Part shown: piece by piece, positions 9,940 through 49,815 of the stretch | Layout of the letters: every line of letters begins with the position of its first letter | Position numbering within the stretch: the first letter of the stretch is position 1 | Assembly (NCBI GenBank): GCA_964346295.1 | Contig: CAYFUG010000004.1 | Span: 532 to 64,531 of the forward strand | From: an uncultured Bdellovibrionales bacterium | GTDB lineage: Bacteria > Patescibacteriota > Minisyncoccia > Moranbacterales > DUUL01 | Reading direction: 5' to 3' | DNA length: 64,000 bases | Notes under the pieces: generated by a model | What the model was told of the DNA's origin: nothing | The model's input: only the letters and a program-made list of their open reading frames with translations | Databases searched by the model: none | Made by a program: the position numbers and the translations under genes

Positions 9940-9977
9940 TGTCTCTCAACGGAGAGACTGTTCTTTGAAAATCTTAG
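9940..9977 (+). promoter_or_regulatory. boxB-like hairpin plus boxA-like antiterminator motif in leader
   Basis: GTCTCTcaacgGAGAGAC hairpin immediately followed by gttctttgaaaatcttag. Resembles rrn boxA (GCTCTTTAACAA / gram-positive TTCTTTGAAAACT). Confidence 0.5.
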
Positions 9978-24118: not shown

Positions 24119-24260
24119 AACGGAGCCTTACTCATTTTGAAAATTTCGTTGTTGAAATCCGGGCTTCCCTTTCACCGTACACTTCAGTACGGCTCAAGCA
24201 AAGCCTACCTGCCTGTCGGCAGGCAGGGATTTCGCCTAGAACTCTCCTAAAATGAGAAAG
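24119..24260 (+). repeat. dispersed repeat family, B-type module
   Basis: ttgaaaatttcgttgttgaa...caccgtacacttcagtacggctc (CCGTAC/GTACGG hairpin) then ...gcctagaactctcctaaaat. Confidence 0.55.
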
Positions 24261-24377: not shown

Positions 24378-24995
24378 TTGAAGCAAGGCTTTTTAGTTAT
24401 TGCTCATAATATCCGCAGTTGCTACAATGTTGGCTCGATTTTTCGTAGTGCGGATGCTTTGGGCGTGGAAAAGATTTATTTAACCGGCTACACTCCCAGA
24501 CCGGGTGTTTTGGTTACTTCCGATGCTGAAAGTGGTCTTGATAAATTAAGCTTTAAGGTAAATTCTCATTCCGATTCAAATTTAAGTCTCGGAGAAAGAA
24601 GAGGCCCCAAAACGAGCTTTACTGAGGCGCTAAAAGCTAAAAAAGATGCCAAAAAGATTGCTAAAACGGCTTTAGGAGCAGAAGAAGTAGTTGCTTGGGA
24701 ATACCAGAGGCAATTAGGACCACTGATTCAAAAATTGCAGTCGCAAGGGGTGCAAGTGGTAGCTCTGGAGCAAGCTTCTAATAGTCTAAAATTAACTGAT
24801 TTTAAGCCCAATTTTCCTTTGGCGCTGCTAGTGGGTAACGAAGTGCGAGGAATCTCTCCTCAAATACTGAAAAAAGTGGACAAAATCGTAGAAATCCCGA
24901 TGCAAGGAAAGAAGGAGTCCTTGAATGTTGGGGTGGCATTTGGAATCGCCGGTTTTTGGCTCCAAGCTGTTGATTTTGGTAAATTTCGTTGTTGA
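24378..24995 (+). CDS. SpoU/TrmH-family RNA 2'-O-methyltransferase
   Basis: LVIAHNIRSCYNVGSIFRSADALGV motif. The C-terminus FGKFRC-stop is supplied by the dispersed repeat. Confidence 0.7.
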   Translation: MKQGFLVIAHNIRSCYNVGSIFRSADALGVEKIYLTGYTPRPGVLVTSDAESGLDKLSFKVNSHSDSNLSLGERRGPKTSFTEALKAKKDAKKIAKTALGAEEVVAWEYQRQLGPLIQKLQSQGVQVVALEQASNSLKLTDFKPNFPLALLVGNEVRGISPQILKKVDKIVEIPMQGKKESLNVGVAFGIAGFWLQAVDFGKFRC

Positions 24996-25185
24996 AGTCT
25001 CCACTTCTCGCTCACCGTAGCTTTATTACGGCTTGCTTCGATGCTCGACTTCGCCTAGAACCTTACTCAAAATCAATAGCTTGGCCTAGACTGTGGCTGC
25101 TTCAGATTAAACTCAAAATATTGTCTAAAATTTCCTCCCGCTTTTGCCAGTGCTACAGATGGGACAGATAAAACTTGAAAAACTT
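24996..25185 (+). repeat. dispersed repeat, near full-length copy (B+A modules)
   Basis: ctcaccgtagctttattacggc...gcctagaacc... then ...gccagtgctacagatgggacagataaaacttgaaa. Confidence 0.55.
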
Positions 25186-25342: not shown

Positions 25343-28009
25343 GTGGAGAGACTTGTTGTCGATAGAAGTGAAGAGAAGAGAAACGGACCGGAAAGAAATC
25401 CGGGGTTTTTTCAGTTAGCTGCTTATCCAAAAGAAGATTGGGATTTGTTAAGGGCTGTGAATAAGGTGTTGTCGAAAGATAGTAGTCGAGTTTATGGTTT
25501 GCAGAGGGCTTTATTGGATTATCCCGAACTAGGGAACGAAGAGACAAAGGAGGTAATTTTAGAAAAGATGGAAGAAGAACTTTTAAGCATTTATTCTGAT
25601 GATTTAAGACTGGAAAATGGAATAAACTCGATAAAAGATGCTTTTGAGGGAATAAGGGGGATTTATTTAGGGAAAATAGAGACAGAGAAGGTTGTGATCG
25701 AGCGAGTCAACCAGCTTTACCCAGCGGAGTTGGAAGCCTTTGAGGATTTATTGGGCGACTTTATAGTTTATAAAAAAGTTTTACCTAAAGATGTTATTCA
25801 GGCAATTTACAGAAATAGGCTAGAGAAAATTGGAAATGTAAATCTTAATAATCTTTTTAGTTATGGAGATGTAGGCTTAGAAAAAGAGTGTTTAGGGGTT
25901 AATGAAAGAATTTTTGAAGCTCTAGAGGAGCTAGCCTTGTTTTCTGATATTTCCGAAGGTCAGAAAGCGGAACTTTTTCAGTCAGTGGCAAGGGGGTTAT
26001 TTGGAAGGGAAAAAAAGTTTTTTGTAGACCCAGAAAAGGCTTTGAGATTTGTAAGAGTCACTTTTCAAAGTCCAGAGACCAAGCGCTATGCCAAGCCACT
26101 TTTCATGAATTATTGGTGGGAGTGGGAGAATGCTATTGAAAAAATGCAGTCAGAAATTGATTTTGAAGATCAGAGCAAGGAGAATATTAGGAAAATAGCA
26201 GAGTTGGCGGAAATTTACGGGGCAGTTTACGGAGAATTGATAAAGAGGGGAATCGAACCTAATAATGATGGGGCAGTTTACATGTTGAATTTTATTAACC
26301 AGGCGGGAGGAGTAGACGATTTTTACCTTAACTTAAAGGTTAAGCAAGCCGTTTTTCTTATTCAGGCTGATGCTTGCCTTTATTATGAGGAAGGCGAGGA
26401 TTGGCAAAAGGAAGGAAGGGCGCAGTTGATTTATAGTGCGGCTCAAACTTTGGGAACTGATCTGCAGCTTAGTGGCGAGGAGCTGCAGCAATTTTTAACT
26501 GATATAAAAGGTTTTTTTGGGCAAAAATTAACTGCCGAAATTGAACCTCTTGTTAAGGGGCAGGTGGCAGCTCCGGGAGTAGAAGGGCATTTTGATGATG
26601 ATTTTGATCTGGTGCTACTGGAGGAGGAGAGAGGCAATGAAGGTGATAGGCTGAAGTTTAGCGAATTTATTAAGTTGAATTACTACGATGTTATTGAAGA
26701 GGGCGATTTTCTGGATTTGATGTTTATGCAAAATTTATTCATCAAGAAGCGAATTTCCCAGGAGTTAGGCGTGGCTTTGCATAACTTAGAGTTGAGAGCT
26801 CAGAATCAGTTTTTAAACTTCATTAAAAATGCCTCCCAGGAGAGAGTGAGACAAGTGGCAGAATTCGTAAAAAATCCAGCAGAAGAAGAGCAGCGCTTAA
26901 ACCGCCTGAGAGTCTTTCTTTCCTTGGAAGAGGGCCATTTTTCAGGAGATCAGCTATTGGACTTGCCTTCCAGGATTGATGCTGACCAAGCGCAGCAAGT
27001 TTTTGACCAGTATGGGAGACTGGTTCAAGACGCTTTTTCGGAGCAGTCGACCCTTCAAGAAGTGCTAAAGAATCCGGAGGATTTGGCCAAAATTGATCAA
27101 GAAAAAATCACTCAAAATTTGCTCTTCCGAGGCCAAAAAATCCTTCAAAGGCTAATTGAGTCTAGCGAGCCAGAGAGAGAGGCAGAAAGTGTTTTATCCA
27201 GCCTTTTAGCACAAAAATGGCAAATTCAACTAGCGGGAGCAGTTTTTAGGGAAGGGATCGAGGCTGGGATGAGTTTAGATGATTTAGAGGGTGGCAGAAT
27301 TGAGGTTTTAACCGTCCAAGACTTAATTCAAAAACCAGAATTGGTGGCTAAAATGAGGGATATTTATTCTAATAATTTCTCCAAAAAACCTGATTTGCAA
27401 GGAGCGGTTTTGCAAGGATTTGATCAAAAAATGACAGAAGGAGGCGTTAATTCGGAGTTTGCTTTGGCCTTTGTGGGCGAAGAATTGGTGGCTTTTAGCC
27501 GCAGTGATCATGTAGACGAAAAAACTCGCTATTTTGCTTCTCTAAACTCTTCTTATGGCGGTGCCAAGTTTGGAGAAGCTCTGAGGAGGAAAAGAGAGGC
27601 TCAGGTGGGAGAAAATTTTGATATTCGGGCTCATAGTGAGCCAGAAAGTGCCATGAGTACGCTGTATATTGGCCCAGAGGGAGGATTTATAGCCGATGGG
27701 GTAGAATTTAATTATCACAACACCGAGGCTAATTTATTCAGTATTACTAGACAAAAAACCCCGCCCAGTTACTATGCTTGGAGTAAGCCTCGAGAAGAGC
27801 TAGTCAAAGAGGCGAAAGAACTTGCGGATAGTGAGATAAGTAGCATTTCTCTAGAAAAGGGTAAGCCTCTGGTTTTAAGCCTCCAGGGGCTAGAAAATAC
27901 ACTAGTGGCACTAAAAACCCTACTCAATGAGCAGGGCGGCCAGTTGACCAATTATTGGTTTCAGGGCGGAAGATATTTTTTAGCTATAGAAAACCCTAAA
28001 TCAAGCTAA
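25343..28009 (+). CDS. large hypothetical protein (888 aa; start uncertain)
   Basis: Long uninterrupted ORF with no recognisable motifs. Starts with GTG at 25343; the alternative ATG near 25567 follows an AAGGAGG. Confidence 0.5.
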   Translation: MERLVVDRSEEKRNGPERNPGFFQLAAYPKEDWDLLRAVNKVLSKDSSRVYGLQRALLDYPELGNEETKEVILEKMEEELLSIYSDDLRLENGINSIKDAFEGIRGIYLGKIETEKVVIERVNQLYPAELEAFEDLLGDFIVYKKVLPKDVIQAIYRNRLEKIGNVNLNNLFSYGDVGLEKECLGVNERIFEALEELALFSDISEGQKAELFQSVARGLFGREKKFFVDPEKALRFVRVTFQSPETKRYAKPLFMNYWWEWENAIEKMQSEIDFEDQSKENIRKIAELAEIYGAVYGELIKRGIEPNNDGAVYMLNFINQAGGVDDFYLNLKVKQAVFLIQADACLYYEEGEDWQKEGRAQLIYSAAQTLGTDLQLSGEELQQFLTDIKGFFGQKLTAEIEPLVKGQVAAPGVEGHFDDDFDLVLLEEERGNEGDRLKFSEFIKLNYYDVIEEGDFLDLMFMQNLFIKKRISQELGVALHNLELRAQNQFLNFIKNASQERVRQVAEFVKNPAEEEQRLNRLRVFLSLEEGHFSGDQLLDLPSRIDADQAQQVFDQYGRLVQDAFSEQSTLQEVLKNPEDLAKIDQEKITQNLLFRGQKILQRLIESSEPEREAESVLSSLLAQKWQIQLAGAVFREGIEAGMSLDDLEGGRIEVLTVQDLIQKPELVAKMRDIYSNNFSKKPDLQGAVLQGFDQKMTEGGVNSEFALAFVGEELVAFSRSDHVDEKTRYFASLNSSYGGAKFGEALRRKREAQVGENFDIRAHSEPESAMSTLYIGPEGGFIADGVEFNYHNTEANLFSITRQKTPPSYYAWSKPREELVKEAKELADSEISSISLEKGKPLVLSLQGLENTLVALKTLLNEQGGQLTNYWFQGGRYFLAIENPKSS

Positions 28010-28762
28010 TTTTCGGGAATAATCCCAGTGAAATTCGAACAGGGATTTGTGCATTTGGTAAATATTGGGATCTTGGATTAGCATAGCGATTTTGTGTTCT
28101 TCTGAAAGGGAGATGTAAATGACTTTTCCTTCGTAAATTTGCATTACAGAACCCGAGAAGGGGTATTTTTCTTGATCAATAAGCTTAATTTCTGTAATAT
28201 CTCGCAGATAATTTTGCAAGTAATTTTTGGCAAAGGCAGAGTCCAGGACCAGAACCTTTTTGTTAAGGTTAAGCTTGGATCTTTTTTTCATGTAGCACTG
28301 ATTGATTTTTTCGGTGTATTTGATAACAGCCTCCAGGTCGGCATAAGTGTAAATAATTTCTTGACTGGTGAGAGTGTCTTCCAGGGCCTCTTGAATGCCT
28401 TCTAGTCCCTCAAAATAGCGGACGTCAGGTTTCTGAGAAACTAAATTAAATTCTGATGTCAGTGCATCTAGATTGGCCGCTAGGTTTTTATGAGTTTTTT
28501 CTAGTTGGGAAGATTGATCGCGGAGTAATTCTTCTAATTGATTAGGGTGTTGAGGATAAAAATGAGTCAATTTTCCCTTTTTTTTGCTAATTACCAGGCT
28601 TTTTTCTTCTAAAGATTCTAAAACATTGTAAACCACCCCCTTTTGGAGGGTGGTTTTTTTAATGATTTCGCTGGCAGGAACTGCTCCAGAGCGAAGCAGG
28701 AATTCGTAAATAGTGGCTTCATTAGGGGTCAGTCCAACTTGAGTAAGGATGTCTTGGTACAT
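28001..28762 (-). CDS. TrmB-family HTH transcriptional regulator, divergent from GC island 2
   Basis: N-terminus ILTQVGLTPNEATIYEFLLRSGAVPASEI is typical of the TrmB HTH. Paralogous to 39074..39868 and 58052..58837. Confidence 0.7.
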   Translation of the reverse strand: MYQDILTQVGLTPNEATIYEFLLRSGAVPASEIIKKTTLQKGVVYNVLESLEEKSLVISKKKGKLTHFYPQHPNQLEELLRDQSSQLEKTHKNLAANLDALTSEFNLVSQKPDVRYFEGLEGIQEALEDTLTSQEIIYTYADLEAVIKYTEKINQCYMKKRSKLNLNKKVLVLDSAFAKNYLQNYLRDITEIKLIDQEKYPFSGSVMQIYEGKVIYISLSEEHKIAMLIQDPNIYQMHKSLFEFHWDYSRKLA

Positions 28763-28877
28763 GTTATTGAAGGTTAGTATTCTGTAAAAAGACTATTTTA
28801 AATGTATTTTTAAAAGATATTTCTACTTTAAATAAGGTAAAATAATAGATTAAGTTAAATTTTTAGTCATTAAATAC

Positions 28878-28906
28878 TTGACAATTTTTTAATAATATGC
28901 TACAAT
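28878..28906 (+). promoter_or_regulatory. sigma70-type promoter of GC island 2
   Basis: TTGACA, 17 nt, TGcTACAAT. Embedded in the TTGACAA...TTGTCAA palindrome. AT-rich UP-like region upstream. Followed by GTCAAGCTAAGAAAAGG. Confidence 0.65.
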
Positions 28907-29108
28907 GCCTTGTCAAGCTAAGAAAAGGGTAAAACTCCGAAGCTTGAAGAACTGAAAGGTTCTAGCCAAATAAGAATAGTTGGCTCTTAGTACATTATAT
29001 CGAGAATAACCACACAACACAAACCACAGGAAAGTTTCTTGCAAGGCTTTTCTAGAGGTGTTTTTTGTGTTGTGGAAACATTCTCTAGCAAGAGCCCTGC
29101 AAAAAACT

Positions 29109-29154
29109 CTCCTATCACGGGGAGTTTTTTGTTCTTTGAAAACTCAGAAATCAG
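29109..29154 (+). promoter_or_regulatory. boxB-like hairpin plus boxA-like antiterminator
   Basis: CTCTCCtatcacGGGGAG hairpin, then gttctttgaaaactcagaaatcag. Confidence 0.55.
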
Positions 29155-29335
29155 TAAAGTGGTTTTCTCCTAGGGCTTTTGTCCTTGGTAGGCAGCTTAG
29201 TGCTTATGAAAGTTTGTAAGCGCTGAGCTGTTTATCAAGCAAGGAAAGCCCGGGCGTCCTAGTCACCGGGAAATTTTACAAAAAAATTATCCGGGCTGTA
29301 CTAGGCAGCCCATTTTTCAGAAAAGGAGAAAGACC

Positions 29336-29785
29336 ATGAAGAAGAATTTCAAACTCGTTCCCGGATCCAAAGGTGCTCGCCGCTCCTTCGCCGTTACTTG
29401 TGGCCTGCAAGAGGGCTACGAAGACGGAACCCTTCACACTTTCCAGGAGGCCGTTGAGGTTGCCTTGGAATGGATGAGGGGGCGGGCCGCCGCCGGTGAG
29501 CAGTACTTGACTGGGACCTTCGTCCAGGGTGAGGTGGTGTTTGCCTGGCCCGAAGGCCCTGGCAAGGCCGGTGGCGGTCACGAGGCGACGGTGATTTACC
29601 AGGGCGAGGTCAGCCCGATCTACAACGCGGGCATGACCGATGAAGAGGCCGTCGAGATCCTCAATGACCTGGCGGCCCATCTGGGGACCGCTCTGGGCCA
29701 GACCCGGGTCTATGTCGCCTTGTGCGACCAGATCTGGATTCTCCAGGCGGAAGAGACGGAAACCCCCACCGGGGAGACCGTCTAG
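29336..29785 (+). CDS. hypothetical protein, GC island 2 gene 1 (149 aa)
   Basis: RBS AAAAGGAGAAAG then ATG. About 60% GC. Protein-like composition. Confidence 0.55.
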   Translation: MKKNFKLVPGSKGARRSFAVTCGLQEGYEDGTLHTFQEAVEVALEWMRGRAAAGEQYLTGTFVQGEVVFAWPEGPGKAGGGHEATVIYQGEVSPIYNAGMTDEEAVEILNDLAAHLGTALGQTRVYVALCDQIWILQAEETETPTGETV

Positions 29786-30072
29786 CGGCCGTTTTTCTGT
29801 CCCCCTTCAATTTGCTTTTGGCATTTAGGAGGGGGCAGCGCTGATTTCTGAGTAAGAGGGTTCAAGGAAGGCGGATTCACATTGTGCGTCCGCCTCCTTT
29901 TCTCAAATCTCAAGTTTAATTGAGGTTTGAGATGAAGGATTGCACCTTGAAAAATTTTCCCTATTTCTCCTTTCAATTGCCTTTTTTCACTTAGTGAAAA
30001 CAAATCCAACTTCGTTGATTGAAGTGAGGCAATTGACGATTTTCAACTGAAAAAAGGGAGAGGAGAAGGGGC

Positions 30073-30513
30073 ATGAAAATTCGAGTCAGGGATCCCAAAG
30101 AGGCGGCCGCCATTACCGGTGGCTGCACCTTTGAACCGGCTATCGGTTGGTGGACCTATACCGACCAGCCGGAAGAGCACGGAAGGCTGGGGCGGCTGTT
30201 TGAGGGGGAGCGGGATGCTTTATATATCCCCACACTCCAGAAAAATGGTCAGCCGGTGGCGGAAGAGGCCATTGCCCGCTTTAAGGTGCGAGCCAAGGAG
30301 TTGGGTTTTGGTGAAATCTCCGGAGCCTCCGGTATGTGGATTTTGTCCGACACGGGGGAGGCCCAGGTCGAGTACATCTGGATCTGTTGGGCTTCCCAAG
30401 TTTCGGATGAGACGCGGTCTCAGATGGCCGCGTTGGCAGAGGAAATCAAAGCCGCCACTAACCAGGACTGCGTGGCCTGGGAAAACGGCGGCCAGCTATT
30501 TTTCACGGGATAA
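30073..30513 (+). CDS. hypothetical protein, GC island 2 gene 2 (146 aa)
   Basis: RBS GGGAGAGGAGAAGGGG then ATG. Confidence 0.55.
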   Translation: MKIRVRDPKEAAAITGGCTFEPAIGWWTYTDQPEEHGRLGRLFEGERDALYIPTLQKNGQPVAEEAIARFKVRAKELGFGEISGASGMWILSDTGEAQVEYIWICWASQVSDETRSQMAALAEEIKAATNQDCVAWENGGQLFFTG

Positions 30514-30526
30514 GGAGGAGACACTT

Positions 30527-31306
30527 ATGAAACGGATTTTTGTTGTCCCTATCAACGATGGGGAGGCGGTAGAGATTAGGAATCTCCTACAGGATGGCGG
30601 TGAAGTGGTTGTGGAAAGCGTCCTCCGTTGGGGAGCCCGATGGGAGAAGCTGGAACCGGAGGTGGTGGCGGAGATCGAAAGGCTTCGCTCCCTTAATCCG
30701 GGAGTTCAGATCTACGGCGTGGAGCTGGCCGGCCCCAATCAGTGGGGGGCTCGCAACATCGACCACCACAAGTACCAGGATGAGGATCGGAGTAATTCCA
30801 AGTCCTCCCTGGAGCAAGTGGCGGAGTTGTTGGGCGTCCAGCTGACCCGGCACCAATTTTTGGTTTCGGAGAATGACAAGGGTTGGATCCCGGCGCTAAT
30901 AGCGGCCGGAGCCAGTCCCGACGAGATCGAACTGGTGCGGGCGCAGGATCGCCAGGCCCAGGGGGTTACCCCTGACGACGAAGCCCAGGCTCTTCGGGAT
31001 ATCGAGGCGGCCCAGTGGCAAGGTCGGAAGGTCTGGCTCCAGTGTCTCAAGGGGGCCACCTCGGCCCACACTGACCGGCTCTTTGGTCAGTTTGACGAAG
31101 CCCTGACGGTGGATGGGGTCAACGGAAAGTGGATCTATTTTGGTCCGCGATCCGAAGATTTCTTCGCCCTCACCGAAGGGGGCACCGAAGGGATACGCTG
31201 GAAAAGCCCTCGACCAGGGGGGTACTCCGGGGCGGAAAAGCCCCAGGAGGAGACCCAGGAAGCAATCCGGAATTTTTTTGGGAGTAATTCCCTTACCTCT
31301 TTTTAG
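30527..31306 (+). CDS. hypothetical protein, GC island 2 gene 3 (259 aa)
   Basis: RBS TAAGGAGGAG then ATG at 30527. The longer track ORF from 30119 has an R/P/W-rich N-terminal extension that overlaps gene 2 in another frame and is judged spurious. Confidence 0.55.
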   Translation: MKRIFVVPINDGEAVEIRNLLQDGGEVVVESVLRWGARWEKLEPEVVAEIERLRSLNPGVQIYGVELAGPNQWGARNIDHHKYQDEDRSNSKSSLEQVAELLGVQLTRHQFLVSENDKGWIPALIAAGASPDEIELVRAQDRQAQGVTPDDEAQALRDIEAAQWQGRKVWLQCLKGATSAHTDRLFGQFDEALTVDGVNGKWIYFGPRSEDFFALTEGGTEGIRWKSPRPGGYSGAEKPQEETQEAIRNFFGSNSLTSF

Positions 31307-31457
31307 CTAAGACGCACTAAGGAGAAGGACAAAATCAGCGTCGGGTTCAGATGGGCTGGCGAGAACCTCGTTAGCCCATCCTTTCCTAGTTCAGCACTAA
31401 AGTGGTGGTGGGCTAAGAAGGGATTAACGAAAAATCACCAAAAAAGGAGGCCCCAAA

Positions 31458-32003
31458 GTGTCTTTAACAAAAGAGCAATTCTCCAGATTAGCGAAGGTAG
31501 CGCTCCAGGTGGCAAAAGAGCGGGGCCAGAGCTTTTACGGGTGGGTTAATCCGCCTCAAATAGAGAGTGGAAAATTGACCCATGACTCCGGAAAAGGACC
31601 CCAGAAGATTTCTCCGGAAGAATCCCTGGCGATTTATAAGAGGAAGCTGGACGGGGTCTATGGGGAGAGATTCATTACCTCTTTGGGCACAATAGCTGCT
31701 TTGATAGCCAATGGCTATTCGGTGCGGCTGGTGCAGTTTTACAAGGAGGTAGGCCTGCCTTTTGACGCGGAGGGTTGGCTAGTGGTGATAATCGAAACCA
31801 TGCCAATTTTCCATGTTTCGCCGGGGGATCTGCGCCTGGAGCAGGTGGCGGATCTGGTTGAGGTGCTAGATGACAATCAAGCGCCCGATGTCTGCCACAA
31901 GGGCACCGACAAGCCGGGAGAGTTTGCGGCTCTTTTGCAGGGCTCTCTTTCTCCGGAGTTGGATTTGGTCAAGATTGCCCAGGAAAACAGTGGCAATTTT
32001 TGA
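31458..32003 (+). CDS. hypothetical protein, GC island 2 gene 4 (181 aa, GTG start)
   Basis: RBS AAAAAGGAGG, 7 nt, then GTG. Confidence 0.5.
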   Translation: MSLTKEQFSRLAKVALQVAKERGQSFYGWVNPPQIESGKLTHDSGKGPQKISPEESLAIYKRKLDGVYGERFITSLGTIAALIANGYSVRLVQFYKEVGLPFDAEGWLVVIIETMPIFHVSPGDLRLEQVADLVEVLDDNQAPDVCHKGTDKPGEFAALLQGSLSPELDLVKIAQENSGNF

Positions 32004-32104
32004 TTCTGTCTACTTTCGATTTTCGTTCATTTCCAATGGATCAGGTGTCATTGTGCATCTGATCCGGAATTCTGAGCTTAGCTCTATTAAGAGGTAGGTT
32101 CAGC

Positions 32105-32128
32105 GTTCTTTAAAAACTCAGAAATCAG
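32105..32128 (+). promoter_or_regulatory. second boxA-like motif, internal to the island 2 operon
   Basis: gttctttaaaaactcagaaatcag lies between gene 4 and gene 5, as a spacer boxA does in rrn operons. Confidence 0.5.
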
Positions 32129-32269
32129 GAAAATCCAACTTTCTATCTTTTCTCTTTGTCTTCTAAAAGTTGTTGGTTACCCGAGAGAATTTAATCTAGT
32201 TAATGAACTGAATTAGCCAGTTAAGTTTTTTTGGGCAACCAACAACCAAGGAAAGAGAAGGAGGAAGAC

Positions 32270-32518
32270 ATGAGATACCAAGGAGCGAGAGAATACAAGG
32301 GCCAGAGGGTGGAAATCCAGCTGCGGGCTGGGGGCAATAATCCCGGAAACGCCTCGGTAACGCTGGTTATCAAAATGGATGGCCAGGAGGTTTTTCGGAG
32401 AAGTGCCGGCCGAGACGGAATGGGCCAGGTGGAAGCCCTGGCCGTGGCTGAAGTGGCCAAGGTCCAAGAGTTGGGCGAAGAAATATATATCGTCCAGTTC
32501 AATGCCGAAGCTATCTAG
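32270..32518 (+). CDS. hypothetical protein, GC island 2 gene 5 (83 aa)
   Basis: RBS GAAGGAGGAAG then ATG at 32270. Confidence 0.5.
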   Translation: MRYQGAREYKGQRVEIQLRAGGNNPGNASVTLVIKMDGQEVFRRSAGRDGMGQVEALAVAEVAKVQELGEEIYIVQFNAEAI

Positions 32519-32704
32519 CCCTTACCTTAGAATTTTTTTGATTTCTAGGCCCTCTCCATCAGGCCTCCTGCGAAGTTAGCAGGTTTTAAAAATTTGGATG
32601 GTAGTCCGAGCGGCGGAAATGACTCAAAACTATCCGCAAAATTAGCCCTGACAATCAGGGCCGGCCGAGGCAAGCGCAATGCCGCTTTAGCCTAAGAGGC
32701 CACC

Positions 32705-32836
32705 AAAAGGCCCGAAAGAGTCTGGCCAACGCGCTAAATCTTTCGGAGGGACGAACTTGTTGAACACAACATTTTCGTCCCCTCTACTAGCAACTTAATT
32801 TGAGACTTGATCTTTTATTGAGTTGCTTGAGAGAAT
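32705..32836 (+). repeat. 132-bp direct repeat, copy 1
   Basis: Near-identical (2-3 mismatches) to 34004..34136. Contains a GGGACGAA-cttgttgaacacaacatt-TTCGTCCC hairpin. Confidence 0.85.
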
Positions 32837-32924
32837 CTATTTTGAAAGGCGAGTTCTTTGAAATATATCCAAAGCTTCATTGTAATCTTTGGGTACTTCA
32901 ACCAAACCAGAAAAGGGGGATGCC

Positions 32925-33971
32925 ATGGGTAAATTTCAGGAAATCACACTGGAATTATTGTTGGAAAATGAAGTTTTGAGGAAGTATCTTCTCAAGGCAA
33001 GAATTGGTCCAGCTAAAAAAGGCGACGGTGCTTTTGTGGGGACTTATGATATTGCCCCGAAGGAGTTTCGGAGTTTTGGAATTGTTTTGCCCAGGGGCGG
33101 GATGATTATTCCAGGGGCAGATCCTGTCAAGTTAAAGGAAATGGTCAAGGAGCCTGAGCGCCGGCGTGAGGCGGAGGACTTGGCAAATCGTCGTGCTGTT
33201 GAAAAAGATTATCTCAATCAGGTGAAAGAGATAATTGCTGAAGCTGGCCTCACGGATATTGAAGTGGTGGAAGAAGACGGAGTGGACTTCCATAGTATCG
33301 GCGCCACCAGCTGGCACAAGAGCTTTTTGGTAAGAGAAGGAGAGAAAATCTTCAGTCTTCACAGCGAAGAGGAGCCGTATCGTGGCTTAGATGACGATGG
33401 TTCGTACGAGCCGTGGAGGACGGAGTTTACTCCGTTGGAAGAGGTGAAATCCTTCCTTGAAGAGGAGGCGCGTCTTGTTGGTCCGAGAAAAATGTTTGCT
33501 GATCGGATCAGGCGGCTTATTGATATAAGCCACAATGTTGGTCAGCAAGGGCCAGATGAAACTGGCTGGGATCGCCCTCGAGTGGAATTATTTTTGTACG
33601 ATGACTATAAAAAAGGCAGGGACTGGGGTTTTTTCGGTCATCGTTGTCAGGGTATCTCTTCGGCCCACAGGATTTACTATCGAAAAAAACTCTATGAGAT
33701 TACCGAAGAAGGCATTTCTCGCCTTGAGTATGAAATCGGAGAAAGGGAGGAGGCGCTAGAAGCAAGACGAGCGATGCTCAAAAGACTCTTCGAAGAGAAG
33801 GGCAGAGTTTTTGAGGAACTCAAAGAAGAGAAAGATTGCTATGCCGGAAAGTCACTGGCAACCGGCAAGGCAAAGTACGATGAGTGGACTGAAACGCGCT
33901 ACTTTCTCGGCGACACAGAAGTTACCGAGGAAGAGCGTGATTGGCTGAAGGGCTTACCTAAGGATAATTAG
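32925..33971 (+). CDS. hypothetical protein (348 aa) bracketed by the 132-bp direct repeats
   Basis: RBS AAAAGGGGGA then ATG at 32925. Charged soluble protein with no recognisable motifs. Confidence 0.55.
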   Translation: MGKFQEITLELLLENEVLRKYLLKARIGPAKKGDGAFVGTYDIAPKEFRSFGIVLPRGGMIIPGADPVKLKEMVKEPERRREAEDLANRRAVEKDYLNQVKEIIAEAGLTDIEVVEEDGVDFHSIGATSWHKSFLVREGEKIFSLHSEEEPYRGLDDDGSYEPWRTEFTPLEEVKSFLEEEARLVGPRKMFADRIRRLIDISHNVGQQGPDETGWDRPRVELFLYDDYKKGRDWGFFGHRCQGISSAHRIYYRKKLYEITEEGISRLEYEIGEREEALEARRAMLKRLFEEKGRVFEELKEEKDCYAGKSLATGKAKYDEWTETRYFLGDTEVTEEERDWLKGLPKDN

Positions 33972-34003
33972 TGGATAAGGCCCTCAAGACTCTTCAAATT
34001 TTC

Positions 34004-34136
34004 AAAAGGCCCGAAAGAGCCTGGCCAACGCGCCAAATCTTTCGGAGGGACGAACTTGTTGAACACAACATTTTCGTCCCCTCTACTAGCAACTTAATTT
34101 GAGACTTGATCTTTTATTGAGTTGCTTGAGAGAATT
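34004..34136 (+). repeat. 132-bp direct repeat, copy 2
   Basis: See copy 1. Confidence 0.85.
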
Positions 34137-34205: not shown

Positions 34206-34317
34206 TCTACTGCTTTTAGCTATTCAATTCCCCTAATCCCTCCTCCTTTGCTAAAGCTATGGTCGGCAGGCTTTTGTAAGGGGGTTGCTGAGCAGGGAAA
34301 GGCTAAGATCTCTTGAC

Positions 34318-34372
34318 TTCCTCCTTCGTCAAAACTTCGGAGGACAAGACGCTCGGGATGACAAAGAAAAAA
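34318..34372. repeat. dispersed repeat, A-type module copy
   Basis: tccttcgtcaaaacttcggaggacaagacgctcgggatgacaaag. Confidence 0.5.
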
Positions 34373-38586: not shown

Positions 38587-39073
38587 AATGGTTTAAAAAA
38601 GGATTTAAGTTACTTGACAATCAATTGAGAAAAAGATAACTTCTAACTTAATTGCTTTTTATTGAGTCCGCTAAGGCAGCGTAACATTTTTTAGGGAATA
38701 AATCTACCCCCTGAGTAAGGAGGACTGGACTTTCTTGGAAAATGTTGTTAATATTGTAGACATAATTTGTCAGACTTCCTTAGGAGGGTAAATTAATTCC
38801 TGTTTAATTTCTTTAATATGCCTTAAATAAGGGTAAATTTAAAAAAGAAATTTTAATTAGGAAATTGATTAAGAGTTTTAATTTTATGTTAATGATCTTA
38901 ATTTAATTTCTCAAAATTTAATTTCTCATCTCAAAAGGGATTAGTTTATTTTTCTGGAAAATCTGAAATTTAATCTACGACTTGAACTCTGCTTGCTGGC
39001 TAGACTTGCAAAATTTAGAGAAGCAGTTTATAATAAAGTTAGAAATGCAGGAGGGTCAAGTTTTAAAAGAGTT

Positions 39074-39868
39074 ATGATGTTAGATGAAGAATTGATTAAA
39101 CTGGGCCTTTCCGAGAAAGAGGCAAAAGTTTACTTGGGGGCAATTCAATTAGGAGCCTCCACTGTCCAAAAAATTTCTCAGAAGTCTCAAGTTAACCGGG
39201 CGACTACTTATGTGATTATCGAGAGTTTAATGCGAATGGGCTTGATGTCTACTTTCGAGGAAGGTAGAAAAACTTTCTATGTTGCAGAGAAGCCTCGTCG
39301 TTTGGTAGAGTTCTATAAAAATAAGAAGACTCGCCTGGATGAGAAGATTGAAAGGTTAAGCGAGATCGTGCCGGAGTTGAATTCTCTTTATAACGATCAT
39401 TCCGACCGACCCAGAGTGAAGTATTATGAGGGCAGTGAGGGTTTATTAGCGATTTATGATGATTTCGAAAGTACTTTATCAGGGGGGCAAGAGATATTAA
39501 TATTTACTCCCATTGATGATTTCAAGAAAATCAAGAAGCCTCAGATGAGTCAAAGGATTGAGAAGTTTAGAGACAAGAGATTGAAAAAAGGAGTGAGAGC
39601 CAGGACTATATATAGCTCTGCGAGCGGAAGGGACGAAATATTTGAAGAAAGTATTAGAAAATTAGGTGAAGAGATCCTATTTTTAGAAAAAGATAAGAGT
39701 GGTCTCAATGGTTTAGACGCGGGTTTAAATGTTTATGGTAATAAGGTTTTCCTTTTTAGTTACCAAGGCAAGAGAGGCGGAGTTTTGATAGAGAGTCAAA
39801 GCGTGGCCAATCTTTTAGGAGGTATATTTGAAATAGTTTGGTCTCATTTGAAATCTTTAAAAAAGTGA
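39074..39868 (+). CDS. TrmB-family HTH transcriptional regulator
   Basis: LIKLGLSEKEAKVYLGAIQLGASTVQKISQ HTH. Start set at MMLDEE (39074). Confidence 0.65.
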   Translation: MMLDEELIKLGLSEKEAKVYLGAIQLGASTVQKISQKSQVNRATTYVIIESLMRMGLMSTFEEGRKTFYVAEKPRRLVEFYKNKKTRLDEKIERLSEIVPELNSLYNDHSDRPRVKYYEGSEGLLAIYDDFESTLSGGQEILIFTPIDDFKKIKKPQMSQRIEKFRDKRLKKGVRARTIYSSASGRDEIFEESIRKLGEEILFLEKDKSGLNGLDAGLNVYGNKVFLFSYQGKRGGVLIESQSVANLLGGIFEIVWSHLKSLKK

Positions 39869-40882: not shown

Positions 40883-42125
40883 AAAGCCTAAGATATTGGT
40901 GGCGCTGAGCGGAGGGGTAGACTCGGCGGTGGCGGCCCTGCTTCTTCTGGAGCAGGGTTTTGAGGTGCAAGGGATTCATTTTTTGCTGAGTAGCGAGAAA
41001 TTGATTAGCGCAGAAAAAGTTCGGTTGATTGCTAATGAATTGGGGGTCGAGCTAGAAGTAAGAGATATTTCTCGGGAGTTTCAAAAAGAGGTGGTGGATA
41101 GTTTTGCTAAAACTTATCAAAAAGGAGCGACGCCTAACCCTTGCGTGATTTGCAACCGGAAGGTAAAATTTAAGCAGTTACTCCAGGCTCGCGAGGAGCT
41201 AGGCTGTGATCTAGTAGCCACCGGACATTACGCACGGATTGCTGCTGGTGAGGGCTCCCTGAAGGCGATCTCCACTCAATCCTCTCAATCTCTCCATCTT
41301 CGCCAGGACTACAGTCGACAGGCTCTACAAAAGGGGGAGACTGAGGGTTTTTTTCTTCAAAAGGCCAAGGATCAGCGCAAGGATCAGTCCTATTTTCTCT
41401 ATCGATTAACCCAGGAGCAGTTGCAATTTTGTCGCTTTCCCTTGGGGGAGCACTTCAAAGATTGGGTCAAGCAGCGGGCTAAAGATTTAAATTTAGGCCT
41501 AGAAAGGCAAGGAGAGTCCCAAGACATTTGTTTTTTTGAGCCAGAGGAAAGCCTGCGAGATTTTCTTGGAAGGCGCTCTAAACAAAACTTTACAGAAGCT
41601 TCAATAATTTCGGACAAAGGTGAGCCTTTGGGGAAATGCGAGGGTTTGGAGTTGTTCACGATTGGCCAGCGCAAGGGCCTAAATCTCAGTGGGGGGCCTT
41701 GGTATGTTTTGAATAGAGATTTCACCAAGCGGCAGCTGGTAGTCACTCGCGATTCGGAAAGCCCGGATTTTTGGCAAAAGGGAATTTTTATCGAGCAAGT
41801 CAACTGGATTAATCAATCTCCTCAGCCGGGAAAATGGTACGACTTGCAAATTCGTTATCAAGGAAAAGTTTATCAAGGGATGCTTGAGAAATTAAAAGAG
41901 GGGCTTCGAGGGCAGGGCGGGGGATATTCCGTCCCCACTCCTACGGGGGTTGCTCAATCCCCCCAGCCCCTCCTCCTTCGCCAGGACTACAGTCGACAGG
42001 CTTTACGAAAGGGGGAGCCTAGCTGGAAGGTTAGCTTGAAGGAGGCGGCCCGGGCGGTAGCAGCGGGGCAATCGTTGGTGGTGTATGAGGGTAGTCAAGT
42101 TTTAGGGGGAGGAATCATCTTCTAG
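40848..42125 (+). CDS. mnmA: tRNA-specific 2-thiouridylase MnmA with two in-frame repeat-derived insertions
   Basis: PP-loop LVALSGGVDSAVAA, NPCVICN, GHYARIA...KDQSYFLYRL, C-terminal SLVVYEGSQVLGGGIIF. About 60 extra residues arrive in two blocks that share the peptide LRQDYSRQAL. Confidence 0.85.
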   Translation: MTLAIMPKNPIKKPKILVALSGGVDSAVAALLLLEQGFEVQGIHFLLSSEKLISAEKVRLIANELGVELEVRDISREFQKEVVDSFAKTYQKGATPNPCVICNRKVKFKQLLQAREELGCDLVATGHYARIAAGEGSLKAISTQSSQSLHLRQDYSRQALQKGETEGFFLQKAKDQRKDQSYFLYRLTQEQLQFCRFPLGEHFKDWVKQRAKDLNLGLERQGESQDICFFEPEESLRDFLGRRSKQNFTEASIISDKGEPLGKCEGLELFTIGQRKGLNLSGGPWYVLNRDFTKRQLVVTRDSESPDFWQKGIFIEQVNWINQSPQPGKWYDLQIRYQGKVYQGMLEKLKEGLRGQGGGYSVPTPTGVAQSPQPLLLRQDYSRQALRKGEPSWKVSLKEAARAVAAGQSLVVYEGSQVLGGGIIF

Positions 42126-42261: not shown

Positions 42262-42330
42262 ATAAGATCCCTCGACTCCCTCCTTCGCCAAGGCTACGGC
42301 GGGCAAGGCGCTCGGGATGACAAACTAAGA
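42262..42330. repeat. dispersed repeat, A-type module copy
   Basis: ctccctccttcgccaaggctacggcgggcaaggcgctcgggatgacaaa. Confidence 0.55.
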
Positions 42331-42370
42331 ATTTTAGAAGCTATACTTTATTGGCAATACCAATTTTTTT

Positions 42371-43021: not shown

Positions 43022-44218
43022 TTGACTTCAAAGAAAAAAAAACAGACCAGTTTTTTAGGGGACAAGAAGGTGGCTTTAGTCCACGATTTTTTGTTATACT
43101 GGGGGGGAGCGGAGGCCACTTTGCAAGTGTTGGCCAAAATGTTTCCTCAGGCGCCGATTTACACCCTGCTTCAGGATGAGCAGTTTACCAAAAAGCACTT
43201 CAGGGGGCGAGAAATCCGGACCTCGTTTTTACAGAAAATTCCCCGCTGGATCCGCAAAAAACACACTCGCTTATTGCCGCTAATGCCAACCGCCATTGAG
43301 TCGCTCAATTTGCGGGATTATGACTTGGTAATTTCCTCCTCTTCGGCTTTTGCCAAGGGAATTGTGGTGAAGCCTAAGACCACCCATGTTTGCTACATGC
43401 ACGCCCCTATGCGTTATGTCTGGGACTACTATCACCAGTATTTTCAAGAGCGCTTTGGCAATCGAGCTAAAATTTTTACCCGGACTTTTCTCAACTACTT
43501 GCGAACTTGGGATCGAGCCAGTGCCGACCGGGCTGATCATCTGGTTGCCAATTCTCGTTACACTGCTCGGCGAATCGAAAAATATTATCGTAGAGAATCC
43601 ATGGTGATTTATCCCCCAGTGGAGGTGGAAAAATTCGCCCTCAGTCCGGACAAGGCAAATTCCAGTATTTCTTCTAGCTCTGATTTGATAGAGAAGCAAA
43701 ATCAGGCCAGGAGAGGTAGCTATTTTTTGACAACGGGGCGCTTAGCGACTTATAAGCGGGTAGATCTTTTGATTGAGGCTTTTCAGAAGCTCAAGTTGCC
43801 GCTAGTGATAGTGGGTGATGGCCCGGAGCGTAAAAAGCTAGAGAAATTAGCCCAAGGGAACAGCAAGATAAAAATTTTAGGCTGGCAAAGTGAGGAAAAA
43901 TTAATTCGACTTTATCAAAATTCCCGGGCCTTTGTTTGTGCCACCGAAGATGATTTCAATATCACTTGCGTGGAGGCAATGGCAGCCGGAACGCCGGTAA
44001 TTGCCTTAAAAAAGGGCGGCGTGCAGGAAACAGTAATCGAAGGTCAGACGGGAATATTTTTCCAGGAGGCACGGTTGGAGCTAGTGGTGGATGGAGTGCG
44101 GCGGTTTATTGAAAAAGAGGCTGATTTTGACTCGGAGGTGATTCAGGCTCGAGCGAGGGAGTTTTCGAGGGAGAGATTTGAGAAGGAGATGCGAAAGTAC
44201 TTGACTTCCATTTTTTGA
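43022..44218 (+). CDS. glycosyltransferase family 4 (RfaG-like)
   Basis: EAMAAGTPVIALKKGGVQETVIEGQTGIFF GT4 signature. Confidence 0.8.
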   Translation: MTSKKKKQTSFLGDKKVALVHDFLLYWGGAEATLQVLAKMFPQAPIYTLLQDEQFTKKHFRGREIRTSFLQKIPRWIRKKHTRLLPLMPTAIESLNLRDYDLVISSSSAFAKGIVVKPKTTHVCYMHAPMRYVWDYYHQYFQERFGNRAKIFTRTFLNYLRTWDRASADRADHLVANSRYTARRIEKYYRRESMVIYPPVEVEKFALSPDKANSSISSSSDLIEKQNQARRGSYFLTTGRLATYKRVDLLIEAFQKLKLPLVIVGDGPERKKLEKLAQGNSKIKILGWQSEEKLIRLYQNSRAFVCATEDDFNITCVEAMAAGTPVIALKKGGVQETVIEGQTGIFFQEARLELVVDGVRRFIEKEADFDSEVIQARAREFSRERFEKEMRKYLTSIF

Positions 44219-44325
44219 AAATTTTGGTGTCAAAATCTCCGCTACTCCCTCACCGTAACTCTCAGTACGCCTCGCTCGCTGCTCGATTTCTCCTAAAAAT
44301 TTCCTAAAAAATGAAAGTCCTTAAA
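44219..44325 (+). repeat. dispersed repeat, B-type module
   Basis: ttttgaaaattttggtgtcaaaatctcc...ctcaccgtaactctcagtacgcctcgctcg...tcctaaaaatttcctaaaaaatg. Confidence 0.55.
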
Positions 44326-47017: not shown

Positions 47018-47100
47018 TGATAAAATTTCCAGGAAAAACAATCAGTGGAGTGATATAAATTCCTTGATTTTTTATCAGTGGAGTGATAAAATTTCCAGGT
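47018..47100 (+). repeat. interleaved short direct repeats upstream of the ATPase gene
   Basis: tgataaaatttccagg occurs twice (47018, 47084). atcagtggagtgata occurs twice (47041, 47074). Confidence 0.7.
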
Positions 47101-47102
47101 AA

Positions 47103-48377
47103 ATGATTAATTCTAGAAAAATGATTTCAAGAGAAATTTATCCTAAGCTTTATAGTTGGGCGAAAAAGGGCAAGATTATTATTTTGAAGGGACCTCGTCA
47201 GGCGGGGAAAACGACCCTGATGAATTTTTTATTAGACAATCTTAAAAAAGAAGGTCAAAATACCGCTTATTTGTTGGCAGATGACATTGATAAGCAAGAG
47301 TTGTTTAAGTCTCCAGCCGCTCTGGAATTTTACTTGAGTCAGAAGTATAATTTTCCCGAAAAACATCTTTTTCTTTTTATTGATGAGTTTCAATACATTG
47401 ATCAGGCGGGACTCTTCATTAAAAACTTTTTTGATAAGCATCAGGGCCAGGTAAATTTAATTTTAAGTGGGTCTAGTTCCCTGGAAATCACTCAAAATCA
47501 AGAGTTTTTGACCGGTCGGGCGGTGGAGTTTGAAATGGGAACTGTTAATTTTCGAGAGTTTTTTAATTTTCGAGAAGGAACTCGGATTAAAAAATTTCCC
47601 CTTGAAAGCCAGGATGATTTAAGTAATTTTTATAAATCCTTTGAGAGTAAGCTAAGCCTCGCCTTAAAGAATTTTTTAGTTTTTGGGGGGTATCCTGAGG
47701 TGGTGGAAACCTCATTAGAGGAAGATAAGAAAGTAATTTTAAAGTCGATTGTTAAGAAATATTTAGAAAAGGATGTGGCGGGTTTTTTGCAAATCGAAAA
47801 TATCACTGCCTTTAACAACTTAACGAAGATTTTGGCTTCTCAAATTGGTAATTTAGTTAATATTAGCGAACTGGCTAATACGGTAAACTTATCCATTAAC
47901 ACCGTTAAAAGATATCTGGATGTTTTGCAAGGGACATATGTCTTTAGTCTGGTGCGACCATATGCTAAGAACATTCGCAAGGAGCTAAGCAAAATGCCTA
48001 AAGTTTATATTCAAGACTTGGGGGCAAAAAATTATCTTTTAGGTGATTACAAAGACAATTTATTTGGTGGCAAGGAAGTGGAAAATTTTGTTTTTTTAGG
48101 GATGGCTAATAATTTAAGTTCAGAAGGAGTTAACTTCTATCGAACCAAGGGAGGCTCAGAGGTCGATTTTATTTTAGAAAAAGAGGGTGGCTTGAATTTG
48201 ATAGAAGTTAAATATCGGTCGGTTTCCAAGATCAAAGAGCCTCTGGCATTCGCCAATTTTTCGGAAAATTATGGAGACAGAGTTCAAAACAAGATTGTGA
48301 TTTCCAAAGATGTTTTAAAAAAAGATGGGAATATTTACTTTATTCCGGCGGTGCTTTGGCCCTGGATAGAGTTATAG
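47103..48377 (+). CDS. AAA+ ATPase with C-terminal DUF4143-like domain
   Basis: Walker A GPRQAGKT, Walker B FIDEFQ. Confidence 0.7.
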   Translation: MINSRKMISREIYPKLYSWAKKGKIIILKGPRQAGKTTLMNFLLDNLKKEGQNTAYLLADDIDKQELFKSPAALEFYLSQKYNFPEKHLFLFIDEFQYIDQAGLFIKNFFDKHQGQVNLILSGSSSLEITQNQEFLTGRAVEFEMGTVNFREFFNFREGTRIKKFPLESQDDLSNFYKSFESKLSLALKNFLVFGGYPEVVETSLEEDKKVILKSIVKKYLEKDVAGFLQIENITAFNNLTKILASQIGNLVNISELANTVNLSINTVKRYLDVLQGTYVFSLVRPYAKNIRKELSKMPKVYIQDLGAKNYLLGDYKDNLFGGKEVENFVFLGMANNLSSEGVNFYRTKGGSEVDFILEKEGGLNLIEVKYRSVSKIKEPLAFANFSENYGDRVQNKIVISKDVLKKDGNIYFIPAVLWPWIEL

Positions 48378-49652: not shown

Positions 49653-49745
49653 AAATTTTGGTGTTGCAAGCTGCGTTTGGCACTCACCGTACCCTTCAGT
49701 ACGGCTCGCACCAAGCCTCGCTTGCGCCTAAAAATTTCCTAAAAT
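49653..49745 (+). repeat. dispersed repeat, B-type module
   Basis: ttgaaaattttggtgttgcaagctgcgtttggcactcaccgtacccttcagtacggctcgcaccaagcctcgcttgcgcctaaaaatttcctaaaa. Confidence 0.6.
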
Positions 49746-49815
49746 TTGGAAGCCTTAATCCAGCGGTTATTTTTAGTGGGAGATTTTTACAAGTTAACTT
49801 TTAAAATTTATTAAA

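Follow-up and report, generated by a model that had tools for sequence, protein, structure and literature searches.

The viral loci closest in proposed function to the system described here are anti-CRISPR operons repressed by anti-CRISPR-associated (Aca) proteins, the ring nuclease AcrIII-1, the candidate AcrIIIB4 and sponges directed against the cyclic oligonucleotide-based antiphage signalling system (CBASS). On the bacterial side, CorA-associated type III-B CRISPR systems remove their S-adenosylmethionine (SAM)-AMP signal with either the phosphodiesterase NrN, which hydrolyses SAM-AMP alone among the substrates tested (PMC10600005), or a SAM-AMP lyase (PMC10600005, PMC12255297), and the paper describing the lyase proposed that phage lyases are anti-CRISPRs. 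In type III-E systems (Craspase), Csx30's N-terminal part binds RpoE and Csx31 and the C-terminal part has the cleavage site (bioRxiv 10.1101/2022.08.22.504715; PMC11106740). The antitermination element boxA is used outside ribosomal RNA (rRNA) operons and shields CRISPR arrays from premature termination (PMC7665894). Here we describe operon A, a GC-rich operon in the genome of an uncultured bacterium of the Candidate Phyla Radiation (CPR), located within a 64,000-nt stretch (hereafter, the window) of contig CAYFUG010000004.1 (assembly GCA_964346295.1). At least three cassettes in this genome, operon A among them, have a control region in common, and homology suggests that they carry proteins taken or descended from bacterial immune-signalling pathways.

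All of these parts (NrN, SAM-AMP lyase, Csx30, the CBASS effector domain and boxA) are already known. We did not find in the literature searched their combination here, namely domain-trimmed immune-signalling proteins without CRISPR, in multiple copies, behind a shared promoter and leader, with a dedicated regulator and conserved CPR-wide. Like the CorA-associated systems, operon A encodes an NrN homologue with a DHH motif (A3) and a protein with the predicted lyase fold and the Gln of the active site, in which a Glu near the end of the T-loop aligns one position off the catalytic Glu (A1). Unlike those systems, in which known loci have one enzyme or the other, both types co-occur; two further proteins, A2 and A4, are added; Cas10, CorA and a CRISPR array were not detected in the vicinity; and the host is a CPR bacterium with a putatively TrmB-gated promoter. 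The cassettes resemble anti-CRISPR operons and viral sponges in their very strong promoter and adjacent helix-turn-helix regulator, in combining predicted immune-nucleotide-destroying enzymes with proteins that are sensor domains only or possible decoys, and in that an NrN homologue occurs in the early operon of a genuine phage. They differ in lying in a bacterial chromosome between housekeeping genes (for example, mreC and mreD) with no mobile-element genes alongside, in carrying a module that is syntenic across many CPR lineages and in having a regulator of the TrmB family rather than of a known Aca family. The likeness is a functional comparison and not one of family membership, and the anti-defence role is a proposal.

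Immune-signalling homologues in operon A

The GC content of operon A in 500-nt windows was 0.55-0.61 (29250-31250), versus 0.33-0.44 upstream and about 40% in neighbouring genes; downstream of 31250 it was about 0.45-0.53 as far as about 32750. The operon comprises A1 (29336-29785, 149 amino acids (aa)), A2 (30073-30513, 146 aa), A3 (30527-31306, 259 aa), A4 (31458-32003, 181 aa, GTG start) and A5 (32270-32518, 82 aa), all on the forward strand. Per gene, GC was 0.52-0.62 and GC at third codon positions (GC3) was 0.59-0.76, compared with a GC3 of 0.32-0.53 for 15 other genes in the window. The coding-type order GC3 > GC1 > GC2 was present in A1, A2 and A3, as well as in the genes B1 and C1 of the sister cassettes, and in A4 and A5 GC1 was equal to or slightly higher than GC3. 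Direct reading of the sequence placed a GGAG-type Shine-Dalgarno motif ahead of all five genes. Homologues fell into 44-101 clusters each for A1, A2 and A3, with 46 cluster representatives for A4, and four datasets gave independent assemblies of this arrangement. These data agree with the initial annotation of a compositionally distinct block of five small coding sequences, each behind a Shine-Dalgarno motif, save that the last product is 82 rather than 83 aa long. Its further statement that the proteins show no recognisable motif and are of unknown function was overturned for four of the five, as follows.

A3 matched the PADLOC model DHH_CorA (3.2e-31, positions 1-178 of 245) and the NrN structure 9lq9 in the PDB (E 1.4e-17, residues 2-159), and its D79-H80-H81 aligned with the DHH motif of NrN (D85/H86/H87 in Bacteroides fragilis NrN). 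Across 35 A3 homologues, H80 was invariant and D79 and H81 were at least 90% conserved; the Pfam DHH and DHHA1 models gave no score on A3. These matches assign A3 to the NrN family of DHH phosphodiesterases.

A1 and A2 were placed mainly by structure prediction. The model of A1 was confident (predicted local distance difference test (pLDDT) score 92) and had a ferredoxin-like PII fold superimposable on the SAM lyase and SAM-AMP lyase structures 6zm9 and 9gab. SAM/SAM-AMP lyases were also the top match of the A1 family profile in the PDB, over the full length (E 0.02). In that alignment, the invariant Q122 fell on the active-site Gln of the B-loop (Q108/Q104) and Y57 on Y48, while H82-E83 fell on E71-E72, so that the residue aligned with the catalytic Glu at the end of the T-loop (E71/E69) is His82, and Glu83 stands one residue off in the hidden Markov model alignment (lyase residues from PMC12255297). 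By its predicted structure, A1 is a protein of the SAM lyase/SAM-AMP lyase fold; no member of its family was found in viral contigs. A2 was likewise modelled confidently (pLDDT 93.6) and its profile had no sequence match in the PDB. Its invariant Q131 lies in a loop that is equivalent to the B-loop by position only, and E96 was placed at a loop end by secondary-structure position only. The model points to a more distant PII/SAM-lyase-like protein.

Gene fusions tie these proteins together. A2 adjoins A3 in all CPR loci, P0003 is an A2-A3 fusion and P0200 is an A4-A4-A2-A3 fusion, from which it follows that the fused proteins work together, and A2 is best described from these arrangements as an obligate partner of A3. 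A4 shows homology to parts of P0217 (residues 312-478) and P0219 (residues 210-378), proteins whose N-terminal parts are the CBASS 4TM effector (Pfam S_4TM, 2.9e-77; PADLOC 'Effector 4TM', 1.7e-82); the gene for P0217 stands directly after a SMODS cyclase gene in a defence island. A4 lacks the S_4TM membrane domain, matches only the C-terminal non-membrane domain of the two proteins and had no match in the PDB. On this homology, A4 represents the C-terminal domain of CBASS 4TM effectors as a protein of its own. For neither the A2 nor the A4 family has a function been described.

The remaining member, A5, is an ORF (open reading frame) with a strong Shine-Dalgarno motif and a GC3 of 0.63 that had no family or structure match in Pfam, PADLOC, NCBIfam or the PDB. 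Farther downstream on the same strand, within 32853-33971, lies the A6 ORF (360 aa from TTG at 32889, 348 aa from ATG at 32925), whose membership of operon A is uncertain because its GC3 (0.48) resembles that of the host genes. A 133-nt direct repeat, 98% identical between copies (32704-32836 and 34003-34135), flanks this ORF (32889-33971); each copy holds a strong hairpin (GAGGGACGAA...TTCGTCCCCTC), and the repeat may mark an insertion or duplication.

Promoter, regulator and boxA-like elements

Operon A is preceded by promoter A (28878-28906, forward strand), composed of TTGACA (28878-28883), 17 nt and TG-n-TACAAT (28898-28906), which matched the consensus at 11 of 12 positions and has the extended TG; the 115 nt upstream are AT-rich. 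Only four extended -10 consensus promoters occur in the 64 kb (9046, 9128, 28878 and 59120). A repeat search found further copies of the promoter, together with roughly 17 bases from the start of the transcript (GTCAAGCTNAGAAAAGG), at 9128 and 59120, and a weaker tandem copy at 9046; these belong to the control regions of cassettes C and B. The leaders that precede GC-rich coding sequence measure about 1070 nt (C), 420 nt (A) and 265 nt (B).

A TrmB-family winged-helix regulator (Pfam TrmB, 1.2e-10) is encoded divergently from operon A (28001-28762, reverse strand). It is 36% identical over the full length to the regulator of locus B, and orthologues diverge from the cassette in the CPR loci L005, L006/L015, L011-L014 and L021. 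The core promoter is bracketed by an inverted repeat read from the sequence, CTTGACA (28877-28883) and TGTCAAG (28911-28917), the second arm of which is part of the conserved transcript start GTCAAGCTNAGAAAAGG common to loci A, B and C; the repeat (28877-28917) is a plausible candidate operator to which TrmB may bind. A third TrmB-family regulator (38993-39868, forward strand), about 25% identical to the other two, adjoins neither a GC-rich cassette nor a consensus promoter.

The untranslated leader of operon A (28913-29335, about 420 nt, forward strand) is highly structured, with a minimum free energy of -167 kcal/mol versus -108 for shuffled sequences (z = -9.6), and contains two hairpins that resemble terminators (29109-29124 and 29293-29311). 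boxA-like element 1 (29131-29154, forward strand) directly adjoins the 3' side of a 13-bp hairpin (29100-29131) and is largely unpaired, the fold pairing its central residues in a single weak 5-bp stem. This element matches the Escherichia coli rrn boxA (GCTCTTTAACAA) at 9 of 12 positions and resembles a Gram-positive-type boxA. The full 24-mer (GTTCTTTGAAAACTCAGAAATCAG) occurs at 29131, with one mismatch at 32105 and in a third copy at 59262, where none would be expected by chance. When up to one mismatch is allowed, its core (GTTCTTTRAAAA) is found six times in the window (9960, 11434, 29131, 32105, 32853 and 59262), always on the forward strand, inside the three cassettes and 72-269 nt before a start codon. 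A stable hairpin lies directly 5' of the sites at 29131, 32105 and 9960, where most of the motif is left unpaired; the weak fold at 59262 pairs part of it. Across loci, the shorter string GTTCTTTRA had 13 sense-strand copies, spread over four loci, in 61 kb of cassettes from nine CPR loci, versus 3 in 329 kb elsewhere (P about 5e-14). The boxA-like motif is therefore a real, oriented and cassette-linked element.

Further elements follow individual genes. Just after A1 (29841-29853, reverse strand), the 3' half of the boxA-like motif (ACTCAGAAATCAG) reappears in inverted orientation, and this copy could pair with 29142-29154 across that gene. It is followed by a hairpin (29864-29899, forward strand; -21 kcal/mol, z = -5.6) with the loop CATTGTGC and then a T-rich run; the loop motif CAWTGYGC is found in hairpins after A1, A4 and B1. 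Hairpins after A4 lead into boxA-like element 2 (32105-32128) within a segment at 32038-32128 (forward strand; -42 kcal/mol, z = -7.2), of which 32049-32079 resembles 60585-60615, 3' of B1. A third core (32853-32864, forward strand) stands ahead of A6. The initial annotation had proposed a textbook promoter, a divergent TrmB-like regulator, a leader hairpin with a boxA-like motif, a second such site between A4 and A5 and a use of shared control elements, and each of these proposals was borne out, the promoter and the boxA-like element both recurring at loci B and C. A literature search for the exact boxA-like string returned nothing useful, and a metagenome scan with a 22-mer of it returned 11 unrelated loci, mostly within genes of other organisms and none in rRNA.

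Compared with boxA/Nus antitermination in rRNA operons and CRISPR arrays (PMC7665894, PMC5725501), the cassettes have a similarly short, U-rich motif (GTTCTTTGAAAA versus GCTCTTTAACAA in E. coli) on the sense strand, largely unpaired, 3' of a hairpin and at the head of a long untranslated RNA. They differ in holding several copies per operon, one before most cistrons, and in the extended conserved 3' half (ACTCAGAAATCAG) with its inverted copy after A1. By analogy, boxA-like sites that head long untranslated stretches would fit protection from premature termination, and expression of operon A is likely to be both high and protected.

By eye, the long leaders also contain repeated GGAGAGAG-like purine blocks (window 9165-10228; L005 5200-6180; L006 3790-4570), which in leader C lie, for example, near 9225, 9445, 9790, 9820 and 9950. 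The transcript starts of different genomes have a purine-rich stretch in common (AGAAAAGG, GAGAGAAGG and AAGAAGTGG, also by eye), which may stabilise the 5' end or serve as a binding site for a protein.

Sister cassettes and the captured Csx30 fragment

Cassette B (58052-60615) consists of a TrmB paralogue (58052-58837, reverse strand), the promoter at 59120, a boxA-like element (59262-59285, forward strand; a copy of the 24-mer), the gene B1 (59421-60554, forward strand) and a 3' hairpin after B1 (60572-60612). It looks inserted, since mreC and mreD flank it. Two small AT-rich ORFs between B1 and mreD (60814-61050, 78 aa, and 61047-61298, 83 aa, both on the reverse strand) may belong to the inserted segment.

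B1 is the one cargo gene for which an origin was observed directly. Its product passed the NCBIfam model CAS_csx30 (4.4e-45; a score of 154.5 bits, with the cut-off at 125; profile positions 2-347 of 560), matched PDB 8eey_E (2.7e-7) and aligned with residues 9-378 of a 576-aa relative at 88% protein identity; its 90% cluster includes 576-aa proteins. B1 thus corresponds to the N-terminal 377 of 576 residues, without the C-terminal region for Craspase docking and cleavage. The full-length relative is encoded on L110, a contig of an organism with 54% GC; it derives from a mat sample in which the strain studied here occurs too and from which the present locus was independently assembled (L002). 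L110 is a genuine type III-E locus, with genes in the order CHAT protease (745 aa), sigma-factor-like protein (209 aa), a 416-aa protein and Csx30 (576 aa), followed by an ORF cut by the contig end with an N-terminus that appears Cas7-11-like by eye; across 3840-10273, the protease and accessory genes precede this Cas7-11-like effector gene. Unlike the relative on L110, which has CHAT and sigma-like genes beside it, B1 stands alone, with no Cas7-11, TPR-CHAT, RpoE or Csx31 around it.

At the DNA level, window positions 59434-60537 were 92.3% identical to L110 8026-9129 over 1104 nt without gaps. This match sets in 13 nt after the start of B1 and ends 17 nt short of its stop, and on either side native AT-rich sequence continues on the same contig. 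With the identity confined to B1 in this way, B1 is a recent capture of the N-terminal part of Csx30 from a locus of a GC-rich organism, and its start and stop, ribosome-binding site, leader and promoter are all new. The GC3 of B1 (0.69) matches that of the donor (0.68), which explains the foreign composition, at least for B1. No near-identical donor was found for the operon A genes among the loci compared. Horizontal acquisition, as first suggested for operon A, therefore stands in part: the composition is foreign and the origin of B1 is direct, but the operon A module is syntenic in at least eight CPR genomes, which speaks against a one-off acquisition.

Cassette C (9046-12459, forward strand) has tandem promoters (9046 and 9128), a 1.07-kb leader, boxA-like cores at 9960 and 11434, and two genes, C1 (10229-11209, GC3 0.75) and C2 (11686-12459), both on the forward strand. 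C1 had no match in Pfam, PADLOC, PHROG, NCBIfam or the PDB; DHH-like motifs seen by eye raised the idea of a DHH relative of A3, and a profile comparison showed no relation. Two AAA_14/DUF4143 ATPase genes sit just upstream of cassette C (6258-7505 and 7623-8957) and, with one more in the window, are assigned by PADLOC to the candidate system PDC-S01 (values down to 1.8e-136).

Integron arrays offer a further comparison, having in common with the cassettes a shared promoter, small compositionally foreign ORFs, hairpin-forming spacers and defence-related cargo. The cassettes differ in that the Pfam matches listed for the window include no integrase, the gene in divergent position being that for TrmB; attC-like sites were not recognised, and the A2-A3 core is syntenic rather than shuffled. 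The lack of an integrase led us to drop this idea.

Conservation, proposed mechanism and alternatives

A3 homologues were located in 80 species-representative genomes. In the CPR loci L005, L006/L015 (Taylorbacteria), L011-L014 and L021, the order is a gene for a large protein, the divergent TrmB gene, a leader of 0.9-1.3 kb, variable small genes and A2-A3, with no large-protein match in L021. In the window, the large neighbour is an 888-aa conserved protein (25343-28009, forward strand), and in seven of the CPR loci homologues of its C-terminal half stand directly upstream of the TrmB gene; it had no match in Pfam, PADLOC, NCBIfam or the PDB. A2 and A3 exceeded the adjacent TrmB and large-protein genes in total GC in eight of eight CPR loci, by 5 to 22 points, and the GC3 excess over these neighbours was more than 15 points in five of the eight. 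Because the module is syntenic across CPR genomes, operon A is no one-off recent import, and the offset in composition is either maintained or renewed. Csx20-like (5.9e-6) and Mvol_0529-family (6.5e-27) proteins are encoded in other CPR cassettes, and in a Taylorbacteria cassette a nucleoside diphosphate kinase gene adjoins the A1-A2-A3 homologues. L021 holds two copies of its own promoter-plus-transcript-start module in one cassette locus (3853 and 5561), so that re-use of a standard promoter and leader is not unique to the genome studied here.

Signalling machinery was not seen near these modules. We found no strong match to Cas10, CorA, cyclase or RAMP among the matches listed for 38 long ORFs (Pfam, PADLOC), none in individual scans of the cassette proteins and none within 8-10 kb of the module in L005 and L006, and Cas7-11 was not detected in the window. 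A3 homologues do stand beside Cas10/RAMP genes in Acidobacteria-type contigs; a Cas10/CorA neighbourhood, not seen in the window or in the CPR loci, was present only for the distant homologues L007 and L109.

Our preferred explanation, held with moderate confidence, is that the cassettes quench or decoy alarm signalling of the type III CRISPR or CBASS type, under control of a regulator and in a layout like that of an anti-CRISPR operon. In the mechanism that we infer, TrmB would hold the promoter shut, perhaps through the CTTGACA...TGTCAAG repeat around it. Once the promoter is released, RNA polymerase would transcribe the long, hairpin-rich untranslated leader and the long intergenic spacers, and the boxA-like sites at the head of these stretches would recruit Nus-type factors that keep the polymerase from terminating. 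A1 and A3, together with the partner protein A2, would then cleave SAM-AMP-type or related SAM/nucleotide second messengers. A4, as the sensor-side domain of a CBASS effector without the killing domain, could bind the signal and give no output, and B1, the sigma-factor-binding part of Csx30 without the part for protease docking and cleavage, could act as an uncleavable decoy. Destroying or soaking up immune alarm molecules, the most likely role of the products, was not previously known from CPR-type bacteria.

Several points weigh against this explanation. The sequence match of A1 to the lyases is marginal, with the catalytic Glu displaced by one residue; the boxA assignment draws on resemblance and enrichment; and A5, A6, C1, C2 and the 888-aa protein are left unaccounted for. 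The conservation and synteny of the module across CPR classes fit a resident function better than a mobile payload for counter-defence. If the CPR cell has no matching sensors, a cytoplasmic quencher would have no obvious target. Finally, NrN is a defence component needed for immunity in type III-B CorA systems (PMC10600005), and the same proteins could serve a host system encoded outside the 65-kb contig.

This last point leads to the best-surviving alternative, which we regard as somewhat unlikely, that the cassettes lie on the defence side as off-switch or tuning modules for the cell's own type III CRISPR, CBASS or Craspase systems elsewhere in the genome, as NrN is for Cmr-CorA. Both NrN and SAM-AMP lyase are bona fide type III-B CorA components required for immunity there, Csx30, Csx20 and Mvol_0529 are CRISPR-associated families, the Acidobacteria-type contigs place A3 homologues next to Cas10/RAMP genes, and the visible genome amounts to 65 kb only. 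Yet Cas10, CorA, cyclase and Cas7-11 were missing from the window and from the 8-10 kb around the module in three CPR genomes, and the neighbours in the eight CPR loci are TrmB and the large protein rather than cas genes. A4 and B1 are, moreover, domain-only truncations without effector or protease-docking parts, for which decoys are the better fit.

A metabolic role is very unlikely. Under it, the operon would salvage SAM and nucleotides for an auxotrophic bacterium with a reduced genome, a SAM lyase yielding methylthioadenosine and a DHH nanoRNase recycling short oligonucleotides. The DHH family does include housekeeping nanoRNases, and both the conservation across CPR lineages and the nucleoside diphosphate kinase gene in the Taylorbacteria cassette would suit such a role. 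A3, however, groups with the CRISPR-associated NrN and not with NrnA (Pfam DHH/DHHA1 silent, PADLOC CorA-associated model 3e-31), and salvage would explain neither the CBASS-effector domain, truncated Csx30, Csx20-like and Mvol_0529-like cargo nor a consensus promoter gated by a regulator.

We consider it equally improbable that the cassettes encode tightly repressed suicide effectors, released by TrmB on infection, in which the outputs of defence systems have become detached from their sensors. A strong promoter under a dedicated repressor would suit a dangerous product, and B1 roughly equals the Csx30 N-terminal fragment that is toxic in the Desulfonema system, according to work cited within bioRxiv 10.1101/2022.08.22.504715. 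Against this, A1 and A3 are by homology signal-degrading enzymes and not toxins, A4 lacks the membrane effector domain, and toxicity in Scalindua requires RpoE and Csx31 (bioRxiv 10.1101/2022.08.22.504715), neither of which was among the matches listed here.

An artefact, whether spurious ORFs in an rRNA-like or other non-coding RNA locus or a chimeric assembly that joins in DNA of a GC-rich organism, is effectively refuted: a GC-rich island in an AT-rich genome behind an rRNA-style promoter and boxA is typically an rRNA operon, and B1 is 92% identical to DNA of another community member, but the coding order of GC in A1-A3, B1 and C1, the tens of homologue clusters, the confident fold models, the independent assemblies in four datasets and the ends of the L110 homology inside B1, with AT-rich native sequence on both sides on one contig, all oppose it. 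The rRNA or non-coding RNA version was excluded because the operon A region contained no Rfam family, rRNA or tRNA and all five genes are elevated in GC3. Permissive Rfam scans of leaders A and C gave sub-threshold chance matches only, and in the whole-window scan at gathering thresholds the sole family was RNase P RNA, located elsewhere (bacterial class A, 144.6 bits, 55953-56363, forward strand).

The cassettes supply testable candidates for new signal-degrading enzymes and sponges, and B1 is a fragment of a defence gene caught during domestication. CPR bacteria live on or off other bacteria, and the cassettes prompt one to ask what ultra-small symbionts need such functions for. A bolder version, which we regard as unlikely, holds that CPR bacteria keep a regulated counter-immunity arsenal built by capturing genes and domains from GC-rich neighbours, possibly their hosts. 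Its contents would be proteins that degrade SAM-AMP, a sponge made of a CBASS sensor domain and a Csx30 decoy that cannot be cleaved, each fitted with the standard promoter, boxA-like leader and Shine-Dalgarno motif. Were this true, it would be the first demonstration that a cellular organism, rather than a virus or plasmid, deploys functions of the anti-CRISPR or anti-CBASS type, and the donor of B1 would point to the host.

The window also contains several families of 35-85-nt intergenic repeats that look like miniature repeat elements. Copies lie at 24122-24260, 24975-25079, 44200-44317, 49634-49752 and 58880-58962; at 6079-6147, 34304-34372 and 42263-42331; and at 34223-34290, 41275-41342 and 41953-42020; one copy lies between the regulator and the promoter of locus B. 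Tandem repeats with a 33-nt period occupy intergenic positions just upstream of genes at 7573-7638 and 47018-47128.

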